DNA of 64,000 bases from Dehalococcoidia bacterium (GTDB lineage: Bacteria; Chloroflexota; Dehalococcoidia; UBA6926), in contig OZ242019.1 in the NCBI GenBank assembly GCA_965204885.1, positions 1,331,734 through 1,395,733 on the forward strand, read 5' to 3'. The position numbers were made by a program, and so were the translations under genes. Below the pieces are notes generated by a model. The model ran no database searches and was not told the DNA's origin. It was given only the letters and a program-made list of their open reading frames with translations. This document shows, piece by piece, positions 9,830 to 33,718 of this stretch. Every line of letters starts with the position of its first letter. Positions within the stretch are counted from its first letter, which is position 1.

Positions 9830-10003
9830 CTAATTGCGTCGGCGCCGCGCCTTGCGGGCCTTCAAGCGGGCTCGTTCCTGCTTGGAGATGAAGTGACGCT
9901 TCTCCTTTGCCTGCCTCAGGATGCCTGAACGTTCAACCACGGAACGGAACCGTTTGATCAACTGCTCCTGGCTCTCACCCTCACGCAGGACTACATACGT
10001 CAT
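9830..10003 (-). CDS. rpsU: 30S ribosomal protein S21
   Basis: 57 aa, below the ORF-track cutoff. My translation is MTYVVLREGESQEQLIKRFRSVVERSGILRQAKEKRHFISKQERARLKARKARRRRN. GGAGGGA lies upstream of the ATG at 10001-10003. Confidence 0.85.
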   Translation of the reverse strand: MTYVVLREGESQEQLIKRFRSVVERSGILRQAKEKRHFISKQERARLKARKARRRRN

Positions 10004-10146
10004 TCGCCACGTCCCTCCGTTTCAATCCTCAATACGTTCTTGTCGCCCACACTATTGGCGGGAGTGATGCCGCGCCCCGCGCGGCCACCCGTCCATTAAT
10101 AGCACAGTCTCAATAAGAAACGGGACAGAACGGCTGGCCGGCGAGC

Positions 10147-10491
10147 TCAGTCGCGGAAGCGGCCTGGCGGCGAGTTCCGTTGTCGAGTGAAGCACGTGGC
10201 GCAATAAACGGGCCGAATGCCGCGGGGCTCGAACGGCACTTCGGTCTCACGCCCGCATTCCGCGCATGTCGCCGGATACATCTGCCGTCGTGGCCGGTCC
10301 TGCTCCACCGGCACCGCATCGCGTGTCTCCCGTCGCCGCGCCATGTCCGCGCGGCGTACAACACGGCAGGCATGGCACCTCTTTGGCTCGTTCCGAAAGC
10401 CTCGATCCGAATAGTATTGCTGTTCTCCAGCGGTAAAGACGTAATCGTTCCCGCATTCGGAGCACGTCAGCGTGCGGTCGCTGAACGTCAT
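10147..10491 (-). CDS. Zinc-ribbon protein with two CxxC...CxxC modules (CxxC-x17-CxxC type C-terminus)
   Basis: 114 aa. It contains CSECG...CHAC and CAECG...(17 aa)...CATC. This resembles widespread small zinc-ribbon proteins of unknown function. Confidence 0.65.
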   Translation of the reverse strand: MTFSDRTLTCSECGNDYVFTAGEQQYYSDRGFRNEPKRCHACRVVRRADMARRRETRDAVPVEQDRPRRQMYPATCAECGRETEVPFEPRGIRPVYCATCFTRQRNSPPGRFRD

Positions 10492-10538
10492 GACGGTCTA
10501 CCCCCACTCCCCCTTGGCGCCAGTCAGGCACCGCGTGG

Positions 10539-10547
10539 ACTATAGCA
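10539..10547 (-). promoter_or_regulatory. Possible extended -10 element (TGcTATAGT) upstream of the zinc-ribbon gene
   Basis: The minus strand reads TGCTATAGT about 45 nt upstream of the ATG at 10491. The -35 is weak. Confidence 0.35.
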
Positions 10548-10577
10548 CAAGTCCACTCTGGACATAACACCCCATAT

Positions 10578-10616
10578 TCCCCTCCCTCACGCGGGAGAGA
10601 GCCAGGGTGGGGGGCA
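10578..10616. repeat. REP-like G/C-rich palindromic element (CCCCTCCC...GGGAG...GGGTGGGG family)
   Basis: ttcccctccctcacgcgggagagagccagggtggggggca is related to the element at 43281-43327. Confidence 0.5.
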
Positions 10617-10707
10617 CCATTCAGAATACGCCTTATCCACTGGTGGTTATGCGGGGAGTATCTCTCCAGGAGTCATCTACCCCGGTGAGGGAGCGGAGAG
10701 GCTCCTC

Positions 10708-27413: not shown

Positions 27414-28262
27414 ATGATGTCGGAAGAACGAGCCAACAGCGAAGCTCCGACCATTGACGCCGAGGATAAGGCTCACATTGCCGAAGAGCGCCTTGAGCAC
27501 GAAGCATCCGCGCTTGAAGAAGAGAAGGGCACTCTTGAGCTCGTCGAGTCCGGCCATGATGATCGCGTCTGGCAACGAGTCCTCCACGCTGCGCTCGCCG
27601 TGCCCGGTGTCAAAGTCAATCGTGAGGACTTTCTGCGAGCCACTCTGAAGTCGATTGCCGATGAAGAGCAGATTGAGAAGGCCATCGAGTCGCGACCGGC
27701 GGTGGCAGGCATCGATATCGCCGAGATTGACGGCCGGGCAAACGTCCTGATCAGGAAGCATGTTGCCCGCGCGTCCGGCATCTCATTCGCAACCGGCATT
27801 CCCGGTGGATTTGCCCTGCTGGGCACGATTCCCGCTGACCTCGCCCAGTATTTCTTTCATATGACCGTGATGGCGCAGGAGTTGGCCTATCTATACGGCT
27901 GGCCGAACCTGCTGCATGAAGATGAACTGGACGAGATTGCCCAGGCTGACATTACGATGTTCATCGGCGCGATGATGGGTGTGGGCGCGGCCAAGCAGGG
28001 CCTCCAACAACTCTCCGCCCGCGCTGTGACGCATCACGCCTCATCAATGCTGGCAAAGCGTGTTGGCCGCTACATCGGTGTCAAGATCACAAAGGACACC
28101 TTCACGCGCGGATTCGCCAAGGCTATCCCACTTCTGGGGGGATTCATCGGCGCCGGTATGACGGCGTCTACTATGCTTCCGATGGCCCGCCGACTCAAGC
28201 AAGACCTTGCCCAGCTTGACTATGCCCTGGCCGAAGCGCCGATTGAGGGACACGAGAACTAG
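27414..28262 (+). CDS. Hypothetical protein, possibly EcsC-family-like
   Basis: 282 aa. The N-terminus is acidic. The central block GISFATGIPGGFALLGTIPADLAQYFFHMTVMAQELAYLYGW resembles EcsC-type proteins. The assignment is from memory only. Confidence 0.45.
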   Translation: MMSEERANSEAPTIDAEDKAHIAEERLEHEASALEEEKGTLELVESGHDDRVWQRVLHAALAVPGVKVNREDFLRATLKSIADEEQIEKAIESRPAVAGIDIAEIDGRANVLIRKHVARASGISFATGIPGGFALLGTIPADLAQYFFHMTVMAQELAYLYGWPNLLHEDELDEIAQADITMFIGAMMGVGAAKQGLQQLSARAVTHHASSMLAKRVGRYIGVKITKDTFTRGFAKAIPLLGGFIGAGMTASTMLPMARRLKQDLAQLDYALAEAPIEGHEN

Positions 28263-28291
28263 CTGATTCAGCTGACCGGCGCGGGGTCTGG

Positions 28292-29239
28292 TTACTTCTG
28301 ACCGTCCCGCTCCTTGCGGATCGCAGAAAAATCCTCGCGACGCCACCGGTAGGGGGAGTGGACAATTGTTCCCGGTTCCGTGACAGTCTCCAGCAGGTTG
28401 AGCGCGTCTTCAACGATTGTTCTCTGTTGATCCACGTTGTCCGGCTGCCCGAACGGCTGCCCATACGGGTGTTTCACATAGAGTGACCGTGGTGGTTTGA
28501 CCCGCATGGGCTGCTGCAAACCCTGGTTCACCACCACCGTAGAAATCCCGTGCTCCTCAAGCACCCGTGCGATCAGCCCGCCGGACTGATTGCACATCGG
28601 TCAAGTTGTCCCGATCAAAGCCGCGTCAACGTCTTCCTCAAGGAGCATTCGGGCTGCTTCCGGCGCCGTCTCTTCCATCAGGCGGGGGATGTTGTCGCCG
28701 ATGATGTACCCCATGAAGCCGAAGGAATTCGCCGCGATTGACCCAATCCGTCTTTCCTCTTCCATATCCCGCAGACGTTCGATTGGAAAGATGACGTTGA
28801 TGTCCTTCTCCGCGTTGGACTTGTCATAGTGCTCATGGAAGATCGCTAGGTCGGACACCGGTGTTGTGGAGGGGATCACGCGATACGTGGGGTCGTCATC
28901 AATGTATGGTTCCTGCGCGTCTCGCACATAGGCCCCGCCCGTTGTCAGCAGCGCAATACGTGCCTCTGAGAGCGGTTTCTGAAATGCCGTCCATGGTGAA
29001 GAATCAAATGAGATGGCGTTGGGATTCACTCGCGATACCAGGTCGCGCTCCCACTCACTCAGGTATGCGTCCACCCGCGACCAATCTCCGTCGTCATGGG
29101 AGAGCAGGGCAGCCTCATACAGCCCGTTGAAAAAGCGCGTCGCCTCCTCTTCAGGGAGGCGTTCCATCCTGATCTTGGAGAACGCCATGTTCTCGATAGA
29201 CGGCGGCAGCCGCGCCAGGTCACGTAGTTCAATTGGCAT
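28292..29239 (-). CDS. GrdB-like (glycine/sarcosine/betaine/D-proline reductase selenoprotein B family) protein, copy 1; in-frame UGA at 28601-28603 read as selenocysteine
   Basis: Track ORFs 28601..29239 and 28292..28597 are in the same frame and are separated only by TGA plus one codon. Read-through gives ...DVDAALIGTT-U-PMCNQSGGLIARVLEEHGISTVVVNQ.... Family hallmarks are ALLTTGG, IPS..P..DL.I.H..YD, DINVIFPIERL and GFMG. A SECIS-like hairpin lies 10 nt after the UGA. Confidence 0.75.
28572..28590 (-). promoter_or_regulatory. SECIS-like hairpin for GrdB-like copy 1
   Basis: The mRNA reads UGA-N10-AUCAGUCC-GGC-GGGCUGAU. The stem is 8 bp including one G-U pair. Confidence 0.6.
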
Positions 29240-29410
29240 GTGAATCAGTCCCCAACCGATCGTCCTATCGTTCCAACTTGCACGTAGACATTAGAAAGTG
29301 CTGTTATGGCCGCGCGTCCGTCCGTCACCTACTGTGTTTCGGTAGCTAGCGTAGCACGCAGCATAGAAAGCTCATACTCGCCAAGAGGAGGGAGCGATGG
29401 CGACAGCCTA

Positions 29411-30262
29411 CTACTCTGAGTTCTTTCCGTTCCGCTCCTTGCGAATCGCAGAAAAATCCTCGCGACGCCACCGGTAGGGGGAGTGGACGATTGTTCCCGG
29501 TTCCGTGACAGTCTCCAGCAGGCTGAGCGCGTCTTCAACAATTGTTCTCTGTTGATCCACATTGTCCGGCTGCCCGAACGGCCGCCCATACGGGTGCTTC
29601 ACATACAACGTGCGGGGCGGTTTGACACGCGTCGGTTGCTCCAATGACTGGTTCACAACCACTGTCGCGATTCCGTTTTCTTCAAGAACGCGTGCGATCA
29701 GCCCGCCGGACTGATTGCAGACGGGTCAAGTTGTGCCAATAAGGGCGGCAGTCACGTCGTCAGCCAACAACAGCCGTGCGGCTTCCGAGGCTGTCTGCTC
29801 AATCAGACGACGAATATTCTTCCCGTGGATGCTACCCATGAACCCAACGTGGTTCTCAGCCACGGAGCCGATTATTCCCTCTGCCTCCATGTCCCGCAGA
29901 CGGTCGATCGGATAGACGACATTGATGTCTTTCTCGGCGTGAGAATTGTCATAGTGCCTATGGAATATAGCCAAATCATCTTCTGGAGTTGACGACGGGA
30001 TTGTTCGGAACGAGGGATCATTATCGACGAAGGGCTCTTGCACTGACCCAACGTAGACCCCACCGGTCGTTATAAGAGCGAGGCGCGCTTCAGCTAGTGA
30101 TCTTTCAAACGGCGTCCAGGGTGACCAATCGTAAGAAACCGGGGAATAGATCATGCGCCAAACGATGAAGTTGACCGCGGGTTTCGGCACTCTCCAGCGG
30201 ATAAAGGCTAGCCTGGAAGCAACTGCCTTTCCAAGGTGATGGGCTAGGTCTACCAGTTTCAT
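29411..30262 (-). CDS. GrdB-like selenoprotein B family protein, copy 2; in-frame UGA at 29726-29728 read as selenocysteine
   Basis: Track ORFs 29726..30262 and 29411..29662 are in the same frame. My read-through translation is ...DVTAALIGTT-U-PVCNQSGGLIARVLEENGIATVVVNQ.... The motifs match copy 1 and the hairpin is identical. Confidence 0.75.
29697..29715 (-). promoter_or_regulatory. SECIS-like hairpin for GrdB-like copy 2
   Basis: The 19-nt hairpin is identical to copy 1, again beginning 10 nt after the UGA. Confidence 0.6.
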
Positions 30263-30304
30263 AGGCGTAGGAGATTCTCTCGTGCATCTCCCTCCTGGGG
30301 ATCG

Positions 30305-30763
30305 TTAGACCGGACGCCAATACTCGTAGACCAGCGCCAGTTCCTTCAGGTACGCCTCTTCGTCGTCGCAGTCCCATCCGCGCATCTCGCGGACAAGGTC
30401 GCAGAACCGCGTGCCGGGCCGCCTTGTGTGTTGGTTCACCACGACGACGCTGAGCAGGGGGCGTTCATATGCGCCTTCAAGCTCACATACCATCGTTAGC
30501 AACTCACCCGCATTGCGAGGGTTGATGGCGGGGTCGCCCAATTGGGCGGCGAACTGCCCGTACGTCATGCGCTGCCCGCTGCGGGCGATTGGGATGAGGA
30601 TCTGACGCGCACGCTCAATCAGCGCGGCATCAATGGGTACTCCGGTGTTTTCTTCCTCTGCTTCTCTCTCGCGCTGTCGTCCAAGCGCGAGAGAGGTCAG
30701 CAACGGATCAGGCTCATAAACCATGGTTCTCTCGTGAACATCTCTAGTCGCGCCTCCGGCCAA
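30305..30763 (-). CDS. Hypothetical protein, paralogue B of an unrecognised domain family
   Basis: 152 aa from a TTG start directly after the upstream stop. An alternative ATG lies at 30722-30724. It shares the block AR..L...AR.G..[IM][ST]YG[EQ][MF]A..L ... LL.V.VV.....PG..F..L.RE with the upstream gene. Confidence 0.6.
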   Translation of the reverse strand: MAGGATRDVHERTMVYEPDPLLTSLALGRQREREAEEENTGVPIDAALIERARQILIPIARSGQRMTYGQFAAQLGDPAINPRNAGELLTMVCELEGAYERPLLSVVVVNQHTRRPGTRFCDLVREMRGWDCDDEEAYLKELALVYEYWRPV

Positions 30764-31309
30764 CTATCTTCCAAATATCCTCGCAAGGCCACGTATGAAA
30801 GCCCGGAGCGGATTGCTTTTCTCAGGCGTGGACGTGCCGGGTTCTCCGGCCGGTGTGCCATCAGATGCCGTGAACTCCTTGTCATCTGAGCTGTAATAGA
30901 GGCGCTCCAATTGCTTTATGACAACGTCGTGGAGAATATCCAATTCCTCCGCAGGGCGTCCCTGCCACTGCGCAACTACTCTCTCAGACTCCTCCAGGTA
31001 AAAAATCTTCTCGTTCTCGAATTGACGTCCCAGTTCACGGGCGAGATTAAAGAATGCGGTGCCGGGTGTTCCCTGGCGCTTCCGGACAACCAGCACCCCC
31101 AACAGGCCCCGGCCTGCCGCCTCCTCGGTGCGTGACAGCTCATTCAATGTCTCGGTGAATTCGCCGCTCTGAGGGCTGAGAACCAGTGCTGTTGCCATTT
31201 CACCGTAAGAGATCGTTCGGCCCTCTCTCGCTCGCGCGACAAGGATTTCCCATGCTCGCGCAAGTGCTCCGTGGTCACGACCACCGCCATCGTTTTGGGC
31301 ACCACTCAT
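30764..31309 (-). CDS. Hypothetical protein, paralogue A of an unrecognised domain family
   Basis: 181 aa. The ATG at 31307-31309 lies 19 nt after the Mo-subunit stop. It is homologous to 30305..30763 and carries an extra C-terminal Ser/Thr/Pro-rich segment. Confidence 0.6.
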   Translation of the reverse strand: MSGAQNDGGGRDHGALARAWEILVARAREGRTISYGEMATALVLSPQSGEFTETLNELSRTEEAAGRGLLGVLVVRKRQGTPGTAFFNLARELGRQFENEKIFYLEESERVVAQWQGRPAEELDILHDVVIKQLERLYYSSDDKEFTASDGTPAGEPGTSTPEKSNPLRAFIRGLARIFGR

Positions 31310-31328: not shown

Positions 31329-33566
31329 CTACTTCAGTTCCTGGTACACCTTCTCCGCTGTGATTGGCAGGCTGTCCACACGCGCGCCGATGCTGTCCGC
31401 AACCGCGTTGGCGATGGCCGGCGCAGCCATGCTGTTTGCATGCTCTCCGATGCCGCGTGCTCTAAGGGGGCCGTGACCGTCATCGGACTCCATCACGACA
31501 ACGTCAAGGCTTGGGATGTCACGAGCCGTCGGCAGCTTCATGTCCGCGAACGACGGATTCATGACACGCCCGCTCTCATCGTAGAATAACCCTTCCATCA
31601 ACGCCGAGCCAATGGACTGTACGATGCCGCCTTCAATCTGGCTTGTGAATCCCATGGGGTTCAACACGCGGCCCGTCTCATGGACTGCCGTGTATCGCAG
31701 CGGCGTCACCTCCGCCGTGTCAGGGTCGACGGATACATCCACGACGTGGACGCCGTAGCCGTTCCACGGGCTGTCAAAGCCCTCCATCTCATCCGTCCGC
31801 GCGCCAACAGGCTCGCCGAAGCGCCGGGCAATGTCCTCAATAGCAATTCGCTCATCCGAGTTCGCGCCGTTCACTATATGGCCCGCCTCGATGGTCAACC
31901 GCTCCTCATCCCAACCCATGAACTCTGACGTTAGGCGCTGAAGACGTCCCTTTACCTCCTGCATCGCGTTGAAACCCGCCGTGCTGAACATCCGCGCGCC
32001 GCGGCTCCCTGCAATGCCCATGTCTCCTGTCTTGCCCTCACGTGTCGACCATGTCACGACGTCGATCCGGTCGATTGGAATGTCAAGCTCGTCGGCGACG
32101 ATCTGCGCGATGATGGTGCCCGTTCCCGTTCCGGGATCGAAGACCGGATGATTGATCTCAACGCGGCCATTCTCCATGACCTTAACGGCCACACTGCCGG
32201 TCACGCCGATCTGTGAGTGGCTCCCAATTGCCACGCCGCGGCCCACGCCCTCCGGCTTCGGCTCGTAATAACCCGCGGCCTCCGCCGCGCGTCTGAGCGC
32301 CGCGCCGGCCTGCACGTTCTGCCACTCTTCGCCCGTTGGATACTCCTCGCCGGGCTCAACCACGTTGTGCAACCGGAAATCCATCGGGTCCATACCAATG
32401 GCCCGCGCCAGCACGTCCATGTGCGATTCCCCGGCAAAGTGGCCCTGAACGTGCCCGGGCGCCCGCGCGTATGTGCACGGGGACGTATTGGTGTACACCT
32501 GGTGCGAGTCCACCTTGACGTTCGCAATGCGGTACGGCCCGACGATTTCCAGGATGCCCATGATGGCGGGTATGGGAGCGTAAGCCGCATAGCCGCCGCC
32601 CGCGAAGTGAATCTCTGACTCCCATGCTGTGATCGTGCCGTCGTTCTTGACACCCGCCTTTACCCGCATCGTTGCCGGGTGGCGCATCGTCATGTTCTGG
32701 AATTCTTCGTCGTATTCAATCGTCCACTTGATCGGCCTGCCGGTCCGCTTCGTGAACTCGTACGCGAGCGCAACATCCGTGCCGGACGACTTGCCGCCGA
32801 ACGAGCCGCCAACATAGTTGAAATTGAAGTTGATTGCGTCATCATCAAGGCCGTACAGCCGCTGCATCTCTTCCAGCGCACCGGTCGGAGTATCGTTCGC
32901 ATTCCATATCTGCAGCACGCCCTCATCGTCGACGTAGACAAGGCAGGCGTGCGGCTCCAGGTAGCCTTGGTGGAGCAGAGGAGTGCGGTATGTTCGCTCG
33001 ATCACGTGATCCGCGTCGGAGAACCCGGCGTCCATGTCGCCCTTGGCAAAGTGCACGCCCGCATAGCGGTTCGGGTGCTCGTCCCGCGGGGGCATTCCCT
33101 CGTATGAACCGGCGTCCGGATGCAGGATTGGCGCATCCGCCGTCATGGCATCCTCCGGCGCGAAAATGGCCGGAAGCTCCTCGTAGTCGATGTCAATCAG
33201 CCCGATGGCCTGTTGCGCGATGTCCTCATCGTCCGCGACGACGGCTGCAACCTTGTCGCCGACCAGCATGACCCGATCCCATGCCAGCAGCGGCATGTCC
33301 TTGATCACTGTGCCCGTCAAGGTGCCCTTGACATCCTCGCCGGTAAGAACGAGCTGCACACCCGGGAGGGCGCTGGCGGCCGACGTGTCTACGGATACGA
33401 TGCGCGCATGGGGAAACGGGCTGCGCAGGATCTTCATCCACAACATGCCGGGCATCTGCGCGTCAAGCCCGTATACGGCAGACCCCGTCACCTTTTCCGG
33501 CCCGTCCACCCGTGGAACTGATGTCCCGACCAGTTTTGAACCACCACTCCCTGCGGTTGATGTCAC
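31329..33566 (-). CDS. Xanthine dehydrogenase / aldehyde oxidase family molybdopterin-binding (large) subunit
   Basis: VGTSVPRVDGPEKVTGSAVYGLD, VGGSFGGK and the large a/b-hammerhead plus MoCo domains are present. The track ORF starts at TTG 33596. I prefer the GTG at 33564-33566, which follows a GGGGGG run. The start is uncertain. Confidence 0.88.
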   Translation of the reverse strand: MTSTAGSGGSKLVGTSVPRVDGPEKVTGSAVYGLDAQMPGMLWMKILRSPFPHARIVSVDTSAASALPGVQLVLTGEDVKGTLTGTVIKDMPLLAWDRVMLVGDKVAAVVADDEDIAQQAIGLIDIDYEELPAIFAPEDAMTADAPILHPDAGSYEGMPPRDEHPNRYAGVHFAKGDMDAGFSDADHVIERTYRTPLLHQGYLEPHACLVYVDDEGVLQIWNANDTPTGALEEMQRLYGLDDDAINFNFNYVGGSFGGKSSGTDVALAYEFTKRTGRPIKWTIEYDEEFQNMTMRHPATMRVKAGVKNDGTITAWESEIHFAGGGYAAYAPIPAIMGILEIVGPYRIANVKVDSHQVYTNTSPCTYARAPGHVQGHFAGESHMDVLARAIGMDPMDFRLHNVVEPGEEYPTGEEWQNVQAGAALRRAAEAAGYYEPKPEGVGRGVAIGSHSQIGVTGSVAVKVMENGRVEINHPVFDPGTGTGTIIAQIVADELDIPIDRIDVVTWSTREGKTGDMGIAGSRGARMFSTAGFNAMQEVKGRLQRLTSEFMGWDEERLTIEAGHIVNGANSDERIAIEDIARRFGEPVGARTDEMEGFDSPWNGYGVHVVDVSVDPDTAEVTPLRYTAVHETGRVLNPMGFTSQIEGGIVQSIGSALMEGLFYDESGRVMNPSFADMKLPTARDIPSLDVVVMESDDGHGPLRARGIGEHANSMAAPAIANAVADSIGARVDSLPITAEKVYQELK

Positions 33567-33718
33567 TGTAAGACCCCCCGAATAAACCTCTTGCAACTGT
33601 GTTCTGCATTGTAACGCAGGGATGCCGTTTCTGCGCCCGTAGCATCGCTCGTTTGAGCACTGTTACACTCTAGAAAGTTCGCAGTATCTGACAAATCCAG
33701 GGCAGGGGGAAAACGCTA

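Follow-up and report, generated by a model that had tools for sequence, protein, structure and literature searches.

Two tandem PrdB-like genes of a Dehalococcoidia bacterium, each with an in-frame UGA predicted to encode selenocysteine

Does an in-frame UGA that interrupts two neighbouring genes of a Dehalococcoidia bacterium end their translation, or is it decoded as selenocysteine (Sec)? The question is raised by a locus on contig OZ242019.1 (GenBank assembly GCA_965204885.1), of which a stretch of 64,000 nucleotides, hereafter the window, was analysed. Both genes lie on the minus strand. Copy 1 (28292..29239) has 315 codons including one UGA, which is codon 213 (28601..28603), and a TAA stop; copy 2 (29411..30262) has 283 codons including one UGA, codon 179 (29726..29728), a short N-terminus and a TAG stop. 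In the list of open reading frames (ORFs), each gene appears as same-frame pieces with one TGA between them. A first-pass annotation, made from the letters and that list, had described two tandem genes each split by a single in-frame UGA; its coordinates and peptide strings were exact, although the minus strand of both genes was left unsaid.

When the UGA is read through, copy 1 gives ...AALIGTT-U-PMCNQSGGLIARVLEEHGISTVVVNQ and copy 2 gives ...AALIGTT-U-PVCNQSGGLIARVLEENGIATVVVNQ, so that the UGA sits within GTT-U-P-x-C-NQSGG in both copies; copy 1 differs from copy 2 by an N-terminal extension of approximately 75 amino acids (aa). On comparative sequence evidence, we propose with high confidence that these are two functional, tandemly duplicated selenoprotein genes of the PrdB-like branch of the GRDB superfamily, in which UGA is decoded as Sec.

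The UGA column and the sequence beyond it

To survey homologues, one genome per species was scanned, and 34 loci were returned. A TGA was present at the same column in 27 gene copies (the window and 25 other loci) from five phyla, the carriers being Dehalococcoidia, a groundwater Chloroflexi metagenome-assembled genome (MAG), Chloroflexi TK10, two Bacillus isolates, Gottfriedia, three Poribacteria and four Eremiobacterota/Vulcanimicrobiota. In 10 further loci (L022-L024, L030, L031, L033-L035, L037 and L038), from Terriglobia/Bryobacteraceae and seven proteobacterial MAGs (Alpha- and Betaproteobacteria), the column holds a Cys codon, TGC or TGT, and Cys is also found there in the database homologue P0042 and in the Roseomonas and Haematobacter proteins. 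These Cys homologues are single polypeptides. The homologues thus do not merely end at this position. As judged from the alignment, the recurrence of TGA at one column in 27 copies, within the same motif, is far beyond chance, and TGA versus TGC/TGT is a classical Sec/Cys pair. The column also aligns with the annotated Sec of genuine PrdB from Peptoclostridium acidaminophilum and Terrisporobacter.

The ratio of nonsynonymous to synonymous substitution rates (dN/dS, Nei-Gojobori) between copy 1 and its Dehalococcoidia orthologues was 0.037-0.099 downstream of the UGA and 0.050-0.103 upstream of it, so that purifying selection is strong, and equally so, on the two parts of the gene. The suggestion of the first-pass annotation that conserved sequence continues past the UGA was therefore borne out, since dN/dS is equally low on both sides and the TGA is kept in 27 copies.

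The possibility exists that the UGAs are real stops, the loci being either pseudogenes that arose by nonsense mutation or the source of two separate polypeptides each. Gene callers and GenBank records do give an ORF of 212 aa plus one of 102 aa, and these pieces are named 'hypothetical protein', as had been foreseen when it was suggested that automated annotation would fragment the genes. The 41 closest relatives in the protein database (P0001-P0041, down to 49% identity) are likewise N-terminal pieces, nearly all ending at the UGA codon; the public orthologue fragments are 210-219 aa long and the next called ORF begins one codon beyond the UGA. In copy 1 an AUG stands at that place, one codon past the UGA, and re-initiation there is conceivable. 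In copy 2, however, the UGA is followed by CCC GUC UGC (Pro, Val, Cys) and the earliest possible start codon comes 22 codons on, at 29662, so the conserved PVCNQSGGLIARVLEENGIAT of this copy cannot stem from a separate initiation. The AUG of copy 1 is replaced by GUC or GUG in copy 2, L005, L008b and L016 and by AUA or AUC in several other orthologues, with the result that the conserved P-V-C-N-Q-S-G-G has no initiator in many copies. Further against real stops are the identical codon at an identical column in 27 copies from five phyla, a dN/dS of about 0.05 on either side of it, the synthesis of the Cys homologues as single polypeptides, and the match of the column to the Sec of PrdB, which was established experimentally according to the citation of Kabisch et al. 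1999 in PMC1088965. Taken together, it is extremely unlikely that the UGAs terminate these genes.

Some variants of the motif were seen in the same survey. The Bacillus-group isolates carry the TGA form S-U-P-L-C-Q-Q-S (L017 at 9935-10660, L019 and L036; Bacillus sp. V59.32b DSM 105191, Bacillus sp. M6-12 and Gottfriedia acidiceleris 1-17), and the Gottfriedia contig has its Sec region in another reading frame than the N-terminal part; going by the contig sequence, this suggests a frameshift or an assembly error. In a Bacteroidota MAG (L026, 3919-4752), G-P-L-G replaces [U/C]-P-x-C, so that both redox residues are gone while the remainder is conserved.

A hairpin downstream of the UGA

Standard bacterial Sec decoding calls for a selenocysteine insertion sequence (SECIS), and the first-pass annotation had proposed a search for such an element past each UGA. 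Folding and RNAalifold revealed a hairpin there, with covariation. In copy 2 (29689..29723, minus strand) it has an 8 bp core, AUCAGUCC paired with GGGCUGAU, a GGC loop and outer pairs; in copy 1 (28563..28601, minus strand) the core helix is made by bases 14-21 and 25-32, counted from the U of UGA, again with a GGC loop. The core AUCAGUCC-GGC-GGGCUGAU is lengthened by 3-5 outer pairs. It begins approximately 10 nt past the UGA, the base of the hairpin being 5-8 nt past it, and the loop is GGN. Bacterial SECIS elements are characterised by a small apical loop that contains a conserved G (PMC1088965).

The 42 nt from each UGA were folded and compared with shuffled sequences (200 for copy 1). 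The copy 1 fold had an energy of -20.4 kcal/mol (z -3.18), which was equalled by 1 of the 200 shuffles, and the copy 2 fold had -17.9 kcal/mol (z -2.04). Folds of 87 nt were unremarkable, with z about -1.2, and the signal is thus restricted to the first 42 nt. Given an alignment in which 21 distinct Sec-type sequences represent four phylum-level groups, RNAalifold independently recovered a 7 bp helix, the same as in the copy 2 fold, in which 99.3% of the cells were paired, as against 4-43% when the partners were slid by 1-3 columns. Double-sided changes were present in three of the seven pairs (U-A to C-G, G-C to A-U and U-G to A-U). Within Dehalococcoidia, six stem codons (AAU CAG UCC ... GGG CUG AUC) show no synonymous change despite an overall dS of about 0.3-1.8, whereas all four bases (C, A, G and U) are seen at the third position of the loop codon GGN, and nearby four-fold degenerate sites (CCN, GCN and CGN) vary.

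By analogy with standard bacterial Sec decoding, the hairpin approximately 10 nt past the UGA would act as a bacterial SECIS. SelB carrying Sec-tRNA(Sec) would bind it, Sec would be inserted and termination avoided, and the products would be full-length proteins of 315 and 283 residues.

Several observations weigh against this interpretation. The peptide itself forces part of the pairing (Q=CAG with L=CUG), Cys homologues keep 3-7 of the 8 pairs in the same register, and only three or four events at the level of lineages account for the compensatory changes. The Sec forms of Bacillus and TK10 have no hairpin in this register (z about 0) and must use a different structure. Neither the 64 kb window nor the flanking regions of the 40 other loci yielded selA, selB, selD or a tRNA-Sec gene. 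A PDB copy yielded no relative, either by sequence or by a fold search with the P0042 model described below (E <= 0.001). Finally, Sec insertion, the redox cycle and the substrate are parts of the proposal that we infer, the redox mechanism by analogy with PrdB; what the sequence comparisons show are the two genes with their conserved UGA and Sec/Cys column, translation past the UGA, the hairpin with its covariation and the place in the family. An Rfam search of 27500-31000 (E <= 10) matched no SECIS family, and ARAGORN found no tRNA in the window and one tRNA-Asp only in 34 loci.

That no Sec machinery was found in the window or these loci would also fit a decoding of UGA that needs no selenium, in which a near-cognate Cys- or Trp-tRNA, or a lineage-specific reassignment, gives a Cys or Trp protein. 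The rarity of TGA as a stop would do so too: the 31 Pfam-supported window genes (5171-62304) end in TAG 18 times, in TAA eight times and in TGA five times, which is unusual for a GC-rich window, and three of the five TGA stops fall in ATGA/GTGA overlaps with the next gene (17760, 22789 and 25306). Nevertheless, UGA does terminate those five genes (trpF, trpE, an amidohydrolase gene, the DUF362 gene and an alpha/beta hydrolase gene), which shows that it is not reassigned, and a window scan for further in-frame-UGA genes with Sec-type motifs found none with coding character beyond these two. A conserved, covarying hairpin past the codon is expected under SelB-dependent decoding, and reassignment would not require one. 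Moreover, the class includes very selenoprotein-rich genomes: the bacteria that BSepDB (2026) ranks as richest in selenoproteins include Dehalococcoidia MAGs with a Sec system, which have 49 and 46 such genes (PMC13326102). We consider decoding without selenium exceedingly improbable.

Relation to PrdB and GrdB

The first-pass annotation had called the genes GrdB-like and had suggested a profile search with the read-through proteins. This gave a family match: Pfam PF07355 (GRDB) scored 32.0 bits with copy 1 and 37.8 bits with copy 2, both above the gathering threshold of 22; in each copy the match runs to the end of the profile (347/347), which falls on the residue just ahead of U. The best NCBIfam model was PrdB, TIGR04483, with 162.6 bits for copy 1 and 160.8 bits for copy 2 in alignments that span the UGA and cover model positions 19-236 and 10-236 of 238. 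The equivalog cut-off of this model is 300 bits, which neither copy reached; the Cys homologue P0042 scored 138.9 bits. The GrdB, GrdF and GrdH models (TIGR01917, NF040794 and NF040795) gave 46-59 bits versus cut-offs of 602-800, and the subfamily model TIGR01918 gave 51.5 and 55 bits versus a cut-off of 65.45. Since only the C-terminal half of the Grd models (431-435 residues) was matched, at positions about 213-432, and the full two-domain architecture of approximately 430 aa was not found, the proteins stand nearer to PrdB than to GrdB. We call them PrdB-like because they fall short of the curated cut-offs of all PrdB and GrdB models, and regard it as very likely that they are neither PrdB nor GrdB proper. 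Of the earlier GrdB-like assignment, the superfamily thus stands, with PF07355 above threshold, but GrdB proper does not.

A protein search with P0042, covering 1.84 billion representative proteins, returned 1,621 clusters at E <= 0.001, a number that falls to 551 at E <= 1e-10. Fragments of 160 aa that end at the Sec column are numerous among them. The relatives are named 'D-proline reductase (dithiol) PrdB' by the Joint Genome Institute (JGI) or 'glycine/sarcosine/betaine reductase selenoprotein B family protein'.

Genuine prdB references were taken from plasmids, namely the Peptoclostridium acidaminophilum gene and a Terrisporobacter gene that adjoins prdA. The clostridial PrdB proteins (TIGR04483; P. 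acidaminophilum and Terrisporobacter petrolearius) are of the same length class as the window proteins and share approximately 36% identity with them over roughly 220 residues. They have Sec in the same column, Cys at +3 and then a conserved E-E-x-G-I-x-T segment, as in the window proteins, so that the PrdB-type Sec of a U-x-x-C motif is found at the PrdB position. The AG-U-GTC-HRS of genuine PrdB occupies the column of TT-U-P[MV]C-NQS, and the two differ in the residues between U and C, which are P-M/V here and G-T in PrdB, as in what follows (U-P-x-C-N-Q-S versus U-G-T-C-H-R-S). In a neighbour-joining tree, all the [U/C]-P-x-C proteins fell into one group, from which the two true PrdBs stood apart; because PrdB served as the root, the tree shows separation and not polarity.

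Are the proteins nevertheless true subunits of D-proline reductase (PrdB) or of the GrdB type, with PrdA or GrdE and GrdA partners encoded elsewhere in the genome? TIGR04483 is the top curated model and is matched over nearly its full length (19-236 of 238), the identity to genuine PrdB extends over 219 residues with Sec aligned, and the JGI label of the relatives says PrdB. On the other hand, 162.6 and 160.8 bits are far under the 300-bit equivalog cut-off and all Grd models are under theirs, the motif is U-P-x-C and not U-G-T-C, and the orphans all cluster away from true PrdB. Genuine prdB lies just downstream of prdA, at a distance of approximately 360 bases, whereas the window genes have no adjacent prdA, prdC, prdD, prdE or prdF. 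With Terrisporobacter PrdA as the query, tblastn (E <= 1) gave no match in the window or the 40 loci, although a distant prdA is possible. GrdB, GrdF and GrdH share the superfamily (Pfam GRDB) with the window proteins, but no grdA, grdE, grdC or grdD lies near the window genes. No neighbour is common to different phyla: clustering of the flanking ORFs found none conserved outside a syntenic Dehalococcoidia block, and Pfam assigned unrelated functions to 20 neighbours. Stickland fermentation is not expected in hosts such as Alpha- and Betaproteobacteria, Bacillus and sponge symbionts, which are generally regarded as aerobic. We therefore consider it very unlikely that these are true PrdB or GrdB subunits.

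On the P. acidaminophilum plasmid EAL2_808p (L039, 4589-5935), prdB is annotated and no prdA is listed in the PLSDB gene table; the 1.3 kb upstream carry no annotation there, and a pseudogene or an omitted feature may be present in them.

As a stand-in for the Sec proteins, the Cys homologue P0042 was modelled with AlphaFold2. The model has an alpha/beta fold (predicted local distance difference test 92, predicted template-modelling score 0.91), in which C161-P-M-C164 falls between strand 154-158 and helix 162-177. By this model, the Sec position opens an alpha-helix that directly follows a beta-strand, and the conserved Cys of U-P-x-C comes three residues later. Such a strand-to-helix position is typical of redox-active CxxC/UxxC motifs. 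By analogy with D-proline reductase PrdB, the nucleophile or redox centre would be the selenolate; the intermediate would be resolved by the Cys to give a selenenyl-sulfide, which a thioredoxin-type dithiol would reduce again.

In no lineage is a pyruvoyl PrdA/GrdE partner or a GrdA encoded nearby, and the PrdB-like proteins are for this reason probably neither D-proline nor glycine reductases; self-contained Sec/Cys reductases acting on another substrate appear more likely, as far as the analogy goes. We mildly favour the broader view that the [U/C]-P-x-C orphans form a distinct enzyme family of stand-alone Sec/Cys reductases that work without PrdA/GrdE or GrdA and are not D-proline reductase subunits, since no PrdA was found in 40 neighbourhoods, the proteins form a separate clade with its own motif, they are below all curated cut-offs, and their hosts are not expected to carry out Stickland fermentation. 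One variant, G-P-L-G, lacks both redox residues. The substrate of such a family may be, for example, of the osmolyte type or another small electrophile in sponge, ocean and soil bacteria. A GrdB-like system has been proposed for the reductive defluorination of fluoroacetate in Synergistota (PMC10838667); on this evidence, the chemistry of the superfamily is not confined to amino-acid substrates.

Members of the family were seen before. In the Sargasso Sea, 'Proline reductase PrdB' with UxxC ranked third in abundance among the known selenoprotein families, with 42 genes (PMC1088965), and in the Global Ocean Sampling (GOS) metagenomes PrdB was among the top selenoprotein families, with 235 Sec and 110 Cys sequences from 38 samples (PMC2398784). 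The 'PrdB' of these surveys by Zhang, Gladyshev and co-workers is, like the window genes, a pfam07355 family with UxxC and a Sec/Cys mix (here 27 Sec and 10 Cys), and it comes from oxic marine communities, far from Stickland fermenters. Judged by Pfam family, motif and Sec/Cys mix, the window proteins very probably belong to it. The two genes thus add members to a known family, since 'PrdB, UxxC' has been catalogued in marine metagenomes since 2005 (PMC1088965, PMC2398784). In the surveys, the family took its name from the best hit and was not split from true PrdB. Unlike the GOS set, the window copies belong to sponge-associated-type Dehalococcoidia MAGs and are tandem duplicates, with an extra N-terminal segment of approximately 75 aa in copy 1. 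The alphaproteobacterial 'Glycine/sarcosine/betaine reductase selenoprotein B family protein' of the Prokaryotic Genome Annotation Pipeline, on plasmids of Roseomonas haemaphysalidis and Haematobacter massiliensis, falls in the same orphan clade. It is encoded by stand-alone genes with unrelated neighbours, has the motif C-P-V/I-C-H-Q-T, with Cys in place of Sec, and is 32-34% identical to the window proteins.

For annotation, the four ORF fragments of the window should become two selenoprotein genes, and the orthologues in public MAGs are at present truncated 'hypothetical proteins'. Two entries would be added to the selenoproteome of a Dehalococcoidia lineage, in a class recently reported to be very selenoprotein-rich. 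The name 'PrdB' is routinely given to a widespread and abundant selenoprotein family though this lacks the partner by which proline reductase is defined, and if the family is indeed distinct, the label that one of the most abundant environmental selenoprotein families has borne for twenty years would be wrong. Cultured carriers make the function testable: the Sec form occurs in Bacillus sp. V59.32b (DSM 105191) and Bacillus sp. M6-12, the Cys form in Roseomonas and Haematobacter.

Neighbouring genes and the tandem copies

The window is ordinary chromosome of an uncultured Dehalococcoidia lineage, with genes for EF-G, an M16 peptidase, the trp operon, LigT, plsX, Mfd, RecJ, an XerC-type integrase, UvrC and MgtE, and the nearest records are Dehalococcoidia MAG contigs with 91-97% protein identity. 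In 11 Dehalococcoidia loci we found a conserved block of a molybdenum (Mo) subunit gene of the xanthine-dehydrogenase family, two small paralogous ORFs and the PrdB-like gene or genes, beyond which a 282 aa ORF and the DUF362 gene lie on the opposite strand. The small ORFs (30305-30763, 152 aa, and 30764-31309, 181 aa; both on the minus strand) are kept in all 11 syntenic loci. Neither they nor the 282 aa ORF had a Pfam or NCBIfam match, even at E <= 5. The sole Rfam match of the 27500-31000 search, a Hairpin-meta1 ribozyme at 30597-30703 on the minus strand, lies inside the 152 aa ORF; with 20.1 bits versus a gathering score of 40 (E 4.1), it is almost certainly due to chance.

The Mo subunit gene (31329-33596, minus strand, 755 aa) belongs to the xanthine-dehydrogenase/aldehyde-oxidase family and is under every equivalog cut-off; its best match is the 4-hydroxybenzoyl-CoA reductase alpha subunit, and no FAD or 2Fe-2S subunit genes are adjacent to it. 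A promoter-like site upstream of this gene, with no terminator-like site on the same strand from there to copy 1, gives weak evidence that it is co-transcribed with the PrdB-like genes.

In other groups the neighbours are a luciferase-like monooxygenase, NmrA, an FMN reductase and DsrE (Bacillus), a GFO/IDH/MocA oxidoreductase (Poribacteria), radical-SAM and methyltransferase genes (Terriglobia) and a CoA-transferase III (Alphaproteobacteria). On Roseomonas haemaphysalidis plasmid p546-2 (L040, 5884-8269), the Cys-form gene is convergent with selO, for the protein adenylyltransferase SelO, at a distance of 5 nt; a link of SelO to the PrdB-like genes was dropped, since this adjacency is unique to the Roseomonas locus.

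Orthologues of copy 1 are present in L005-L016, and those of copy 2 are P0040, P0041 and L008 10967... The last approximately 130 nt of the two paralogues (28292-28450 and 29411-29575) are 95-98% identical at the DNA level, as compared with 58-67% in the N-terminal parts, and the paralogue dS, saturated upstream, drops to 0.45 in the C-terminal part. From the sequence, the two 3' ends look like a recent gene-conversion tract. In the window and in L005, the copy with the short N-terminus comes first and the one with the long N-terminus second, with a spacer of 171 nt. The order is flipped in CBDBNN010000003.1 (a 1.18 Mb contig; L008 = L004, 10001-11830), where the long copy comes first and the spacer is 15 nt, so that close relatives whose flanks are identical differ in the order of the paralogues. 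In most other Dehalococcoidia loci, the long copy alone is present within the 10 kb flank.

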